DNA of 64,000 bases from Rhodothermales bacterium (GCA_965224105.1 CBDCYH010000002.1:2028930-2092929); one strand, 5' to 3'. Positions 59,566 to 63,826 are shown, counted from the stretch's first letter. Notes: a model not told the origin generated them from the sequence alone. Numbers and translations are program-made.

Positions 59566-61671
59566 CTAGAACGTATAGCGGTGACGCACGGACAAGAACT
59601 GTTCGTTGTAGTTGAAATCACTGGCATCGGGTTGTGCGAATCGATCAATTCCAAGTTGCACTTCAAACTGCATGTTGTTTCCGATATCGTAAGTAGACTG
59701 CAGTGTCACACCATGTCGGTTGGAACGAGGCGCGAATGGAGTATCGTTCGACAGCGTGGTTGAATATCGAGCGGACGCGTTCAATCCGAAATTGAACCGA
59801 TAACCTACAAGGAGTGACGCAGTCGTCCAATTCTGCACGTCGTCAATAGAACCCAGGTGCAGACGCAATAAGGAGAACTGCGTTGACAGATAGATGGGTG
59901 TTCGAAATTGTTCTGTCAGCACCGCGGTAAATGCGTTGTTTGTACTGGAAAGGTCGGCGTTGAGTTTGTCAGTCCTGTTTGTTCTCGCGAAAGAGAGGCT
60001 TACCGCATGTCGAGCGCCCATAGCCTCGAATGCATGTGAAAGTCCAGTGCTGTATGTTCGAACGGTACTGCTAGACCCGAGAGCAACGGGGTCAAGCGCC
60101 GACCGGGTCCGCGAATTGTGGCGAACCCCGCCGGTTATTCTTGGAATTGCATCACTGTGCCGATAGCCGATCGACCCTGCAATTGTCGACGACTCCAGTT
60201 TGTACGCATTCGATACAGCATCTGGAGCGGATACATATGAAAAATAACTCGCCGTCCCCGTCAAACGATTGTTCAGATATCGGAAGTTATTGGACAAGTG
60301 CACCGAGGAACGATTGGGTTGCAAATACGGATTGGCTGCGGAAAAGTACGCACTACCAATTTTACGCACCTCCGCTTTTAGAGTATTGCTCGGCAGCCTT
60401 AGGGTGCTCTTTGCAAACCAGGACAAACTCGTCAACTCATCCAGGCGCAGTGGATACGTTGTGGGATTCAAAATTATTAGCGGGCTGAAGGACGCTGGAT
60501 TAATTGGAATATCCGTTTGGAATAGAGAATCGATTTCCGATTTTTTGGATGCGCCGCGCGAGATATCTTCCGTAGTTACGCTCATCGCGGACCCAAGCGA
60601 TATCTGAAGTCTGTCGCTAATGGCATTAACATCCAGGTCGGCTCCGACTATCAAGTTTTGTAGCGGCTGGAGACTCGAAATTGCAGAGACTGAGTCATCC
60701 GTTGCACGCATGCCCGAAAGGGAAAATAGAACGGAGTTGGGATTGCCAAATCCGAGCCTAACCGAGGTTATGTTCCTGGTATAAACCCCGTTTGTTGTTC
60801 CAATACCGGGTCCACCTACGAAGCTAGATAGTTGATCAACTCCTCGGGCTAGCTGGCCTCGCGATACCTGCAGGTGCAAGAAGCTTGCATTCATTTTTAC
60901 CAACACCCCCCGCGTTCGAGACCGCAAACCCATTAGTTCGTTGAGCTCAGGATTCGTGTCTCCGAGATGCAACGCTCCATAGCTTGACTCAACGCCGACA
61001 AGAAACCTGTTTCGGGGTTGCAGAAAAGCCGATTCGTTTGTTGTAAGCTGCAGCCTGATCGGAAAGGTGAGAGACTTGTACGAACCTACAATATCTACCC
61101 CAAGTGTTTGGGTGGATAGTGGTTCTTGTTTTAGCAACTTGTTTCCGCTAAGTGATGCATTGCGGGTTGAAACCAGTGCCGAACCGGTGAACGACATCCT
61201 GTCTCTGCCAGAGCTGGTCGTGGTTGGAGATTCGGCCACGACAACATCCGCATCGCCAAGTGGACCGTCCACACTGAACGACCACTTCAACGGTTGCCAG
61301 TGGTGGCCATTTTCTCCGCGACCTGTTAACTCCAAGGTATGGATTCCTTTTTTCAGGGATGACGTTACAACAGCGGTGATAGATGCAGAGTTTACTCTGA
61401 GGTGATCAGAGATATCCTTGCCGTCCAGCTCGAGCGTGACCGAAGATGGATCAACCGAATAGCCGGCGCGCAAACTTACAGCGACGTAAAACTCGTCGCT
61501 ACTTATCCGGGAGCCGTCGCGTGGATGCTCGACCCTCCACTGTTGCCCCGAGCTTTCATCACTATTGCTCGCCACCGAGGTTGCGACAGATGCGCCCGAG
61601 GTATGCGATACCGCGAACGCCAAAAGAAGCGCCGGAACAAGCCGCAATTGTCTAACTAGCTGAATCAGCAT
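59566..61671 (-). CDS. Hypothetical outer-membrane protein: N-terminal Ig-like domain plus predicted beta-barrel
   Basis: Signal peptide; VDPSSVTLELDGKDIS...GIHTLEL...WSFSV Ig-like module; many amphipathic strands; C-terminal RHRYTF. Confidence 0.65.
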   Translation of the reverse strand: MLIQLVRQLRLVPALLLAFAVSHTSGASVATSVASNSDESSGQQWRVEHPRDGSRISSDEFYVAVSLRAGYSVDPSSVTLELDGKDISDHLRVNSASITAVVTSSLKKGIHTLELTGRGENGHHWQPLKWSFSVDGPLGDADVVVAESPTTTSSGRDRMSFTGSALVSTRNASLSGNKLLKQEPLSTQTLGVDIVGSYKSLTFPIRLQLTTNESAFLQPRNRFLVGVESSYGALHLGDTNPELNELMGLRSRTRGVLVKMNASFLHLQVSRGQLARGVDQLSSFVGGPGIGTTNGVYTRNITSVRLGFGNPNSVLFSLSGMRATDDSVSAISSLQPLQNLIVGADLDVNAISDRLQISLGSAMSVTTEDISRGASKKSEIDSLFQTDIPINPASFSPLIILNPTTYPLRLDELTSLSWFAKSTLRLPSNTLKAEVRKIGSAYFSAANPYLQPNRSSVHLSNNFRYLNNRLTGTASYFSYVSAPDAVSNAYKLESSTIAGSIGYRHSDAIPRITGGVRHNSRTRSALDPVALGSSSTVRTYSTGLSHAFEAMGARHAVSLSFARTNRTDKLNADLSSTNNAFTAVLTEQFRTPIYLSTQFSLLRLHLGSIDDVQNWTTASLLVGYRFNFGLNASARYSTTLSNDTPFAPRSNRHGVTLQSTYDIGNNMQFEVQLGIDRFAQPDASDFNYNEQFLSVRHRYTF

Positions 61672-61739
61672 GCCGTCTGATTTAGAGGGTGCCCACCAAT
61701 GATATATCGGTCGAGCAACGGCAAAATGTAAGGATTCTA

Positions 61740-62777
61740 CTACTTGGCGCTGTTTCCAGAACCATGCCTGTGGACCAGAATCGTTGTCACGGGCTGTAGA
61801 CCCTTACCGGGTATTTTAGCCACTACCGTCATCGCCATGATCCTGTCGGGCTCAAAGAGTGATATGTCGATCGTCCACGAATTGGTGGTCAGTTTGTATT
61901 CACCGAAATTCAGACCGTCCCCGTCCGAGACGTCCACGTTGTAAGTAACCCCTTCGACGTCGTCGATGGCAGGCCAGCTAAAGGTAACAGGCCCTTCCGT
62001 TTCAGCGGGGAGTTGAACAACGCTGTTGCCGTAGAGCGACTGTCCCTCTTCATCCAGCAGACCACTGTGGATTCTACCACCTGTTGCTTCGTCCGGAGCT
62101 ACTCCGGCCGTCGGCAATGGTATAATCGTTTTTCCAACGGGAATCAGAAGCACCATAAGCATGACACCCACCGCGAACGCCATCGCAGGTGCGGGCCAGC
62201 GCAGGGCCAGAATCTGGTCAAACGCTCTGTTGACTCCGTTGATGAGCGACGCCCACTCTTCCTCTCGCAGGCTCTTGTCAGCAATCTGAATTTCAGGAGT
62301 CTTCTTCATAGCCTCCACCATTTCAAACGGAGCGATGAGGCTGGATTGAACCGGCACTGCAAGCTCTTTCTTGATCGCAGAGTACTGAGAGAAACACCAG
62401 TGGCAATCGGAGAGGTGATTACTTACCACCAATCGATCTTGCCCCTCAAGGGAATTGTCTGCGTACGCAGCTAGAACCTCATCAGCTACATGGATCATCG
62501 TGCCAGGAGGTTGCGAATCGTTATCATCATCAACCGTGTGGATGCGGGATGACATCATATTTTTTCCTTTACTCATTAGTGACTGCACTCGGTCTATTTC
62601 TTCTTGACAGTTTGGACATTGAGAGATATGAGCATCCAGCTCTTGCTGAATGCCATCCTCAAAGCCTCCCTGGAGGTACCGTGATGCATCACCAAACGAC
62701 ATTTGTTTGGTAGGGCATGCGGAGCGATGTGCTGGGGGTTTATCTTGAATAGTCATAATCGTAGCGTGTCTCTTCAC
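61740..62777 (-). CDS. Anti-sigma-like protein with two tandem zinc-finger (ZAS) domains, a TM helix and a periplasmic beta domain
   Basis: C21...HISQCPNC and H96...HLSDCHWC; TM MAFAVGVMLMVLLI; FN3-like WPAIDDVEGVTYNV. Confidence 0.75.
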   Translation of the reverse strand: MKRHATIMTIQDKPPAHRSACPTKQMSFGDASRYLQGGFEDGIQQELDAHISQCPNCQEEIDRVQSLMSKGKNMMSSRIHTVDDDNDSQPPGTMIHVADEVLAAYADNSLEGQDRLVVSNHLSDCHWCFSQYSAIKKELAVPVQSSLIAPFEMVEAMKKTPEIQIADKSLREEEWASLINGVNRAFDQILALRWPAPAMAFAVGVMLMVLLIPVGKTIIPLPTAGVAPDEATGGRIHSGLLDEEGQSLYGNSVVQLPAETEGPVTFSWPAIDDVEGVTYNVDVSDGDGLNFGEYKLTTNSWTIDISLFEPDRIMAMTVVAKIPGKGLQPVTTILVHRHGSGNSAK

Positions 62778-63826
62778 GAGTTAACTTGGGGCGCCATGGA
62801 TGATTGTGTACCCATGCTTCTCAACATTGCTTTCAATCCCTTTACTGAGATTGATGATGATTGTAAATCTCCGTCCAACCAATTTTCAGCCTCTGCGAGA
62901 AGGCTGCTGTGCCTGGTAGACAGCTGTTGGCCAACTTTCTTTAGGATGTGATCGACAGATTGGTAAATGCTGTGGATCGTCGTTTTTCCAGTGCGTGGCT
63001 TTACCGGTAGCGTTATGTCTAGCTCAGAGCAGGTCGACAAGATGGACGTGGCATCCAACTCCTGATCAAAGACCATGTCTAACAGTAATTTTTCATTTTC
63101 GGGGAGCACGCGGATGAGATTGCAAATTGTTTCCCAAATATTTTCCACCGCTTCCTGTATCGGCAAAACTTCGAGTCTGTAAGGCAGATCGTGGTCATCT
63201 TCGTCGTAGGCTCCTTCCGGATCTCTCAAAACAAGATGCAAGTTTCCGGCGGTCACGAGCGCGTGCGTAATTCGCTTTTGCGATTTTTCGACATCATCGT
63301 ACGACATCGACAGGTTGCGCGCGATTATTTCCGGAGACCGTTGCATCACCATCTGTTCAAACACTTTTCCGTCGGTTTCTCCCAATTCCTTGATTTCTGC
63401 TGGGCGTGTTATTTGGTCTACCCGCAACTTGCGCTTGTGACGAATCCAGTCGGTACGGAGAGATCCGTGTAACACCGATGCGACGAATGTCTCCAGACTC
63501 GAACGGCCGTCGTAGTTCTTGAGCTTGCCAGTATGCTTCTTATGCTTGTAGAAATATTCGAAAGTGAAAGCATATATCTCCAGGCCTTCGTCGCAGCCAA
63601 CCCTGTTGTCGGAAAGTGACTGCACGTTATTTTTAGCCAGCGCATGGAAGACGCAGTGGACCACGGCCTTGTTGTATGGGCAGGCTTCGCTACACAGTTG
63701 CCAGGAACGGCGCCATATCCTGTCTGTGAACTTCAACACGAATTGATTCCAGGCATCGGAATCGCCGTCCAGGATGCGCGCGACCCATTTCTGATCGCTT
63801 GAATATGTTTTTGCCGGGTTTGCCAT
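62774..63826 (-). CDS. Atypical sigma70/ECF-like factor (350 aa)
   Basis: DQKWVARILDGDSDAWNQFV and KNYDGRSSLETFV...RTDWIR sigma-2 motifs; LPENEKLLL sigma-4-like start; 4-nt overlap with the anti-sigma gene. Confidence 0.7.
   Translation of the reverse strand: MANPAKTYSSDQKWVARILDGDSDAWNQFVLKFTDRIWRRSWQLCSEACPYNKAVVHCVFHALAKNNVQSLSDNRVGCDEGLEIYAFTFEYFYKHKKHTGKLKNYDGRSSLETFVASVLHGSLRTDWIRHKRKLRVDQITRPAEIKELGETDGKVFEQMVMQRSPEIIARNLSMSYDDVEKSQKRITHALVTAGNLHLVLRDPEGAYDEDDHDLPYRLEVLPIQEAVENIWETICNLIRVLPENEKLLLDMVFDQELDATSILSTCSELDITLPVKPRTGKTTIHSIYQSVDHILKKVGQQLSTRHSSLLAEAENWLDGDLQSSSISVKGLKAMLRSMGTQSSMAPQVNS

Follow-up and report, generated by a model that had tools for sequence, protein, structure and literature searches.

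In a 64,000-nt stretch of the genome of a Rhodothermales bacterium (GCA_965224105.1, CBDCYH010000002.1:2028930-2092929; hereafter the window, with positions counted from its first nucleotide), a divergent sigma-like protein, a membrane-bound zinc anti-sigma factor, an outer-membrane beta-barrel and a putatively secreted subtilisin-like protein are encoded next to each other on the minus strand. A functional link among the four genes, judged from sequence comparison, is likely because they share a promoter motif, stay linked through rearrangement of their surroundings and occur together in the same genomes. The module is probably an undescribed route from the outer membrane to gene control, with a barrel that plausibly carries a signal, and we put the complete four-gene signalling module as proposed below at an even chance.

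The sigma-like gene (62774-63826, 350 aa) overlaps the anti-sigma gene (61740-62777, 345 aa) by 4 nt and is translationally coupled to it, and the barrel gene (59566-61671, 701 aa, ending in ...RHRYTF) follows 68 nt further on. Calling open reading frames (ORFs) on the minus strand gave the lengths, the overlap, the gap and the terminal Phe just as a first-pass annotation of the window had reported them. That annotation described a cassette of three genes, and there are four instead: a co-oriented ORF of 978 aa, here called S8X, lies just upstream of the sigma-like gene, ends at 63901 and leaves the window past base 64000. Only its 3' end (63901-64000) is inside, the full gene reaching to about window-equivalent position 66837 (L025:331-3267, minus strand, equivalent to 63901-66837). 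The gap from the S8X stop codon to the sigma-like gene is 74 nt, and the start codon of the latter is 174 nt from the window end. The source genome comprises 3.41 Mb in 2 contigs, and since metagenome contigs from four public runs span the locus with zero differences, the assembly is sound here. The runs found to hold the locus are all assemblies of metagenomic DNA. Homologues are annotated as Rhodothermales as well.

Three of the four genes are preceded by closely similar motifs on the minus strand: TTAA-N15-CGTCCGATA before the sigma-like gene (63857-63884, within the 74-nt gap after the S8X stop), TTAC-N14-CGACCGATA before the barrel gene (61705-61731) and, beyond the window, TTAC-N14-CGGCCGATA before S8X. 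In its refined form, TTA[ACG]-N14-15-CG.CCGATA, the motif occurs four times in the whole 3.41-Mb genome (both strands, 6.8 Mb), and the three sites just listed account for three of these copies. In a related locus (L002), where the sigma-like protein is 76-77% identical, a relaxed version is present at just three places in 18 kb, each 54-65 nt before one of the same three genes, compared with approximately 0.05 copies expected from the motif frequency in the window genome. The spacers of the L002 copies upstream of S8X and the barrel gene differ from those of the window genome. The site at 63857-63884 also belongs to a family-wide motif, CT[TG]AA-N14-CCGTCC, which 14 loci carry in front of the sigma gene at a fixed offset and with unrelated spacers, and which looks like a promoter for a sigma factor of the extracytoplasmic function (ECF) type, with an AAC-like -35 and a CGTC -10 element. 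In L001, L014 and L020, S8X too has the family-wide motif in front of it, at scores that exceed the 99th percentile of the background, and in L033 it precedes an entire five-gene cluster (323aa-barrel-S8X-sigma-anti). We infer that the 350-aa protein is the reader of the shared motif.

The other relaxed matches in the window genome are mostly found directly in front of ORFs that encode envelope or secreted proteins. The motif precedes two paralogues of 180 aa (C2:1138944, minus strand) and 171 aa (C1:354091, minus strand), which belong to no known family, start with an N-terminal hydrophobic helix (MPQTILAFLAMM... and MPQSLLAILSMI..., respectively) and are candidate members of a regulon. It is also found in relaxed form at the genes for a Reeler-domain protein sorted by the type IX secretion system (T9SS; C2:1822919) and for an LVIVD-repeat protein (C2:1519607).

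The module is lineage-restricted, and its sigma-like gene and barrel nearly always co-occur. The sigma-like gene is present in 20 of the 251 genomes of the order, i.e., in all 13 genomes of the window's family and in four other families. Across the phylum, no more than 2 of 201 sampled genomes have it. The anti-sigma gene adjoins it in every one of the 20 carriers. A close homologue of the barrel is likewise found in 20 of the 251 genomes, 19 of which also carry the sigma-like gene. Four gene orders are seen: S8X-sigma-anti-barrel with collinear TPM/LemA/DUF4252/ECF flanks (order A; families f1, f4 and f50); barrel-S8X-sigma-anti in three distant metagenomic lineages with different flanks and a sigma identity of 45-50% (order B); S8X-sigma-anti followed by znuACB, with the barrel elsewhere (order C; f58); and the sigma pair, S8X and the barrel on three separate contigs (order D; f47). 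The first-pass annotation expected the barrel gene to be syntenic with the sigma pair. This holds for orders A (f1, f4, f50) and B, where the barrel gene lies near the pair, and fails for two of the five families (f47 and f58), where it is not adjacent.

Two loci have other neighbours. In L005 (2795-8063; genome G215, f58) the sigma pair is followed by co-oriented, tightly packed genes for ZnuA, an ABC ATPase, two ABC-3 permeases and a GEVED-domain protein. A link to zinc uptake was considered and dropped: znuA-znuC-znuB follows the pair in a single f58 genome only, and the ZnuA gene of the window genome lies 300 kb away and lacks the motif. In L034 (27-3084) a lone sigma pair stands beside a divergent gene for a DtxR-type iron-dependent repressor.

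The 350-aa protein is accepted here as a member of the sigma-70 family on the strength of profile and fold comparisons, with predicted sigma-2, sigma-3-like helix-turn-helix (HTH) and sigma-4 regions followed by a C-terminal extension (62774-63826, minus strand). Standard models do not find it: the window protein has no Pfam sigma match, Sigma70_r4_2 matches only 6 of 36 homologues with a best E-value of 0.011, TIGR02937 scores 21.3 bits and so falls below its cut-off of 42.9, and the weak FliA and ECF matches are also below curated thresholds. The profile of the 36-member family does, when aligned by hhalign to the 17 Sigma70_r2 proteins of the genome, give a match over residues 2-309 (Prob 95.4%, E 1.7e-8), and the ECF subset of these proteins still gives a Prob of 89.9%. 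Alignment to the orthologue group of the neighbouring ECF factor alone is insignificant (Prob 2.9%), since that template is too narrow. In an AlphaFold (AF2) model with a mean predicted local distance difference test score (pLDDT) of 80, all 50 of the 50 best Foldseek matches in the PDB are sigma factors (among them FliA/SigD, sigma-32, SigW, AlgU and sigma-E, with probabilities up to 1.0); their E-values are weak, 1.5e-3 and above, because the domains are flexibly arranged. The hhalign match and the all-sigma Foldseek list thus bear out the sigma identity and fold that had been claimed at first sight. The family is tight: its 56 clusters all bear the name 'hypothetical', and identities are 45-77%. 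Between families the protein is 55-77% identical, well above its partners, as the need to fit RNA polymerase would lead one to expect.

An unusual part of the protein is a Cys/His-rich insert of about 35 aa in sigma-2 (63593-63694, minus strand; C45, C49, C58, H61, C78). It sits between the first two sigma-2 helices and, in the profile alignment, is without counterpart in other sigma factors. Among the 36 homologues C45 and C78 are invariant, while C49, C58 and H61 are conserved in at least 90%, and the insert is a candidate metal or redox site. Further divergence is seen as an insert in the sigma-4 HTH and in the length of the C-terminal extension, 45 aa.

The 345-aa protein (61740-62777, minus strand) is predicted to be a single-pass membrane anti-sigma factor with two anti-sigma domains in tandem. 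The first carries a CHCC-type zinc motif (C21/H50-x3-C54-x2-C57; 62607-62717) and the second an HHCC-type motif (H96/H121-x3-C125-x2-C128; 62394-62492), in the nomenclature of PMC11506125. The zf-HC2 model (PF13490) matches in two stretches with 33.2 bits against a threshold of 22.2, the ChrR and RsrA models match each repeat, and the zinc site of repeat 2 has ChrR-like spacing. A transmembrane segment (residues 193-213; 62139-62201), hydrophobic in sequence and conserved in the alignment, leads to a periplasmic beta-rich domain of about 130 aa that resembles fibronectin type III (FN3) or immunoglobulin (Ig) modules (61743-62138). The domain has F-x-W-P, Y-x-V and GG-x-x-PV as conserved positions and resembles the FN3-like modules of S8X no more than marginally. 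The FecR domain (PF04773) gives no match in this protein at E-values up to 1. In all these respects, i.e., two full zinc motifs with a zf-HC2 match above threshold, one transmembrane segment, a beta-rich periplasmic domain and no FecR domain, the protein is what it had been taken for. Both repeats are kept throughout the 17 homologues. Some lineages have lost the zinc ligands of repeat 2, and f47 and f58 have lost those of both repeats; the L005 protein has lost all of them. The anti-sigma factor would hold the sigma-like protein through two tandem class-I anti-sigma domains, a proposal for which and against which we see about equal reason. The literature searched contains no described anti-sigma factor with two such domains that we could find, which is not proof of absence.

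The 701-aa protein (59566-61671, minus strand) is an outer-membrane protein with a signal peptide, and it ends in Phe. Its AlphaFold model (pLDDT 84.7, predicted template modelling score 0.71) consists of the signal peptide, a periplasmic Ig-like domain (residues 45-135; 61267-61539, minus strand), a linker and a beta-barrel of approximately 26 strands (residues 160-701, minus strand), and the model contains no plug. A helical insert at residues 369-415 (60427-60567, minus strand) holds the most conserved residues of the protein. No Pfam or NCBIfam family matches, and specifically FecR, Plug, TonB_dep_Rec and STN are all without a match. We therefore reject a typical TonB-dependent receptor, because there are no family matches and no plug in the model, in agreement with the original description of an Ig-like N-domain in front of a barrel of another kind. 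The best PDB match is the 26-strand MtrB with an E-value of 1.2e-10 and a template modelling (TM) score of only 0.37, followed by ushers, TonB-dependent receptors and LptD. An exhaustive HMMER search returned 591 representative relatives, and a profile search of a word-indexed protein collection returned just the four barrels already known.

S8X is predicted to have a signal peptide, an N-terminal region of beta-domains at approximately residues 45-480, which we call X, and a C-terminal subtilisin-like domain. The X region has weak matches only, to Ig, FN3 and DUF928 models, and the Pfam S8 match spans the Ser region alone. The catalytic triad reads Glu-His-Ser instead of Asp-His-Ser, and the usual GTSMATPHV of subtilases reads GTSFATPRV. 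In an alignment of the catalytic sites of 12 homologues, all 12 keep the motifs of His, of the oxyanion Asn and of Ser. A role as T9SS cargo was rejected, as only 54 residues separate the catalytic Ser from the C-terminus and a sorting domain is absent.

Homologues of the barrel and of the X domain are widespread in the phylum. The barrel profile matches 138 of 301 genomes sampled from the phylum, and residues 43-390 of S8X are homologous to proteins that adjoin barrel homologues in every non-Rhodothermales context first examined. When we sampled 20 barrel loci from different families of the phylum, hidden Markov models (HMMs) of the barrel and of X matched neighbouring genes in 13 of them, and residues 43-390 of S8X match these X proteins with E-values down to 1e-61. 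Nine of the 20 loci hold a full cluster consisting of an X protein, a FecR-domain protein, the barrel and a CHASE2 cyclase, an arrangement that was first found on metagenome contigs via precomputed Pfam annotation; three hold the same cluster without a detectable X or FecR, in three a shorter barrel is accompanied by a large protein of 1,015 to >2,400 aa that contains X, and five have no detected partner. The barrel thus adjoins a CHASE2 cyclase in 12 of the 20. The window locus has neither a FecR-domain protein nor a CHASE2 cyclase, and the sigma/anti-sigma pair is in that place. The most constant partner of the barrel is not the anti-sigma factor but the N-terminal X domain of S8X, a point that the first-pass annotation had missed. 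Clustering of FecR-domain and CHASE2 genes has been noted before, in adenylate cyclase clusters of Campylobacterota (PMC9239204) and in an operon of Burkholderia (PMC5192318), and the two papers refer neither to the barrel family nor to a protein with the X domain. The barrel/X module appears to be undescribed.

Some barrel loci are distinctive in other ways. In L078 (2-9559) and L079 (1-9173), from genomes G013 and G184, ORFs of >2,400 aa with an X-like domain, truncated at the edge of the region analysed, lie directly upstream of short barrels (588-605 aa). In L028 (5003-8914) and L029 (6248-10750) the CHASE2 cyclase gene is followed by a gene for a response regulator with a PglZ domain.

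These results can be joined into a simple scheme. The barrel and X would form the sensing part on the envelope side, homologous to the outer-membrane pair of the X-FecR-barrel-CHASE2 clusters; a sensing role is favoured because the homologous pair sits among periplasmic and inner-membrane signalling proteins. The inner-membrane output would have been exchanged in this lineage for the sigma/anti-sigma pair, with the periplasmic domain of the anti-sigma factor standing in for the FecR-domain protein and for CHASE2. In S8X, the subtilisin-like domain is a candidate for the protease that starts anti-sigma degradation, and the released sigma factor would then raise its own expression together with that of S8X and the barrel via the common motif. 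We infer both the direction of signal flow and whatever contact or cleavage there may be between the barrel/S8X pair and the anti-sigma factor. A variant signalling route through another kind of outer-membrane partner was the central proposal of the first-pass annotation. The partner stands: a non-TonB barrel is tied to the pair by motif, linkage and co-occurrence, and its distant homologues are found in the FecR/CHASE2 clusters. The route itself, with a signal that would pass through the barrel, is a proposal still. A more general version, on which we are only tentative, would have barrel and X as a TonB-independent outer-membrane sensing module with interchangeable outputs, either FecR plus a CHASE2 cyclase or a tandem zinc-binding anti-sigma (ZAS) protein plus a new sigma subclass, and with the X-fused subtilisin-like domain as the first protease.

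Several observations weigh against this scheme. In f58 the barrel gene lies apart from S8X-sigma-anti, and in f47 it is unlinked from the pair and follows a sugar-isomerase-like gene by approximately 30 nt. The periplasmic domain of the anti-sigma factor has only marginal matches to the S8X, X and barrel proteins (domain E-values of 0.057 or above), and the position of the catalytic Asp in the S8X homologues is Glu (VAVLEFGFD) in 11 of 12. The refined motif was derived after inspecting the three sites, which leaves two independent observations, namely that it is rare elsewhere and that it recurs in L002. With a weight matrix built from the 14 sigma-gene promoters, the regions upstream of the barrel gene are not above background, and a whole-genome scan with the same matrix gives no second strong site. 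Note that this matrix over-weights CCGTCC, and that the link to the barrel emerged only with the motif common inside one genome. CGTC as a -10 core is common to ECF promoters in general, and the neighbouring canonical ECF gene has a textbook promoter (GTAAC-N17-CGTCT, approximately 55868-55894) that resembles the module motif, so another sigma factor could read the motif. Finally, terminator-like hairpins lie between the anti-sigma and barrel genes in several relatives. The barrel gene is therefore a separate transcription unit. A division of the four genes into three transcription units, i.e., S8X, sigma plus anti-sigma, and barrel, has in our estimate as much for it as against it.

The alternative that survives best is that the four genes form a regulon and nothing more. 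The barrel and S8X would then be a secretion or anchoring pair for a surface protease, or in other genomes for giant X-domain proteins, and the sigma pair would control their expression or monitor their assembly as a form of envelope stress, without any signal transmitted by the barrel. Several observations fit such an arrangement: X is the most constant neighbour of the barrel; the X proteins of 1,015 to >2,400 aa beside short barrels in L078, L079 and L081 look like a cargo with its pore or anchor; the best fold matches of the barrel are pore or sheath barrels (MtrB, ushers, LptD); S8X has a signal peptide without a T9SS sorting domain; and a common promoter motif suits target genes as well as partners. 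However, barrel and X most often have as neighbours a FecR-domain protein on one side and a CHASE2 sensor cyclase on the other, both of them signalling proteins and not transcription regulators of a secretion pair, and the linkage to a dedicated sigma pair survives rearrangement. We regard a pure regulon as a substantial possibility, though not a favoured one.

It is also conceivable that the 350-aa protein does not work as a sigma factor, and is for example a decoy that titrates the anti-sigma factor, or a DNA-binding protein that senses redox state or metal. It misses every curated threshold (none reached in Pfam, 21 bits against 42.9 for TIGR02937), its sigma-2 and its sigma-4 HTH both contain inserts, its C-terminus is extended, and the comparison to the orthologues of the neighbouring ECF factor alone is insignificant. 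Against this, the profile match to sigma factors is full-length and spans sigma-2 to sigma-4, the fold matches are sigma factors exclusively, the identity of 55-77% across families is far above that of the partners, and a conserved promoter stands in front of the gene. We consider a non-sigma function improbable. Least probable of all, and quite unlikely, is that the genes merely share an inherited order, and an ECF motif of a generic kind to which other sigma factors respond, as the collinearity of order A including its unrelated flanks (TPM, LemA, DUF4252, ECF), the unlinked barrels of f47 and f58, the negative weight-matrix test and the CGTC-type promoter of the neighbouring ECF gene might suggest, since order-B loci hold the four genes together despite different flanks, three of the four genome-wide motif copies are in this locus with the pattern recurring in L002, and the sigma-like gene and the barrel co-occur in 19 of 20 genomes.

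The proposed module shares features with several known systems without matching any of them. In cell-surface signalling by FecI-FecR-FecA, an ECF sigma factor and the FecR anti-sigma factor are linked to a TonB-dependent transducer. As in that system, a sigma factor, a single-pass anti-sigma factor with a periplasmic domain and a barrel with a periplasmic N-domain are encoded together, with an ECF-type promoter before the sigma gene. However, a FecR domain is missing from the anti-sigma factor of the module, the barrel lacks plug, TonB box and STN domain and is built of approximately 26 strands rather than 22, the sigma factor is three-domain and highly divergent, and a subtilisin-like protein is the fourth member. 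Distant homologues of the barrel and of X have, in many Bacteroidota, a FecR-domain gene on one side and a CHASE2 cyclase gene on the other, but the window module lacks both FecR and CHASE2 and its output is a sigma factor.

The pairs SigR-RsrA, SigW-RsiW, RpoE-ChrR and SigL-RslA resemble the module in the H-x3-C-x2-C motifs of their ZAS proteins (CHCC, HHCC) and in the adjacent and coupled sigma gene (PMC11506125). The module differs in having two tandem domains in one anti-sigma chain, and a partner sigma factor with a sigma-3-like domain and a Cys-rich insert. A precedent for a transmembrane ZAS protein that is degraded by a dedicated co-encoded protease is DdvS-DdvA of Myxococcus xanthus, where a periplasmic CHAT protease forms a domain of the ZAS protein itself (PMC11506125). 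In the module the protease would instead be a separate secreted S8-like protein, whose cleavage of the anti-sigma factor is hypothesised.

From the sigma-3-like HTH to sigma-4 the best sequence and structure matches of the 350-aa protein are FliA/sigma-28 and other group 3 sigma factors. Unlike these it has no flagellar context, it carries the 35-aa Cys4/His insert in sigma-2, the insert in the sigma-4 HTH and the 45-aa C-terminal extension, and it is paired with a membrane ZAS protein instead of FlgM. The barrel is comparable to MtrB, LptD and the ushers, which are large barrels of 24-26 strands with an inserted or docked partner protein, but the TM score is only 0.37, there is no sequence similarity, and no cytochrome, Lpt or pilus genes are nearby.

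If the scheme is correct, signalling to sigma factors is not confined to TonB-dependent transducers, and there is a second, structurally unrelated and widespread outer-membrane module for it. CHASE2 sensors would then gain concrete envelope partners. The sigma-like class is invisible to the Pfam and NCBIfam sigma models, and surveys based on these therefore miss it. The Cys4/His insert and the two-domain anti-sigma factor are both unusual features, and the common promoter motif outlines a small candidate regulon.

Beyond the barrel gene, the region 55928-59549 on the plus strand encodes a canonical ECF sigma factor (55928-56473), followed by its anti-sigma factor, two DUF4252 proteins, LemA and a TPM-domain protein. 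This block and the barrel gene converge, and families f1 and f4 show the two in collinear arrangement. The TPM-domain protein (58710-59549, plus strand) has, after a transmembrane segment, a C-terminal tail of approximately 60 aa rich in Gly, Ser, Trp and Arg (GGGGRSRGGGWSTGGGGWSGGGGFSGG...).

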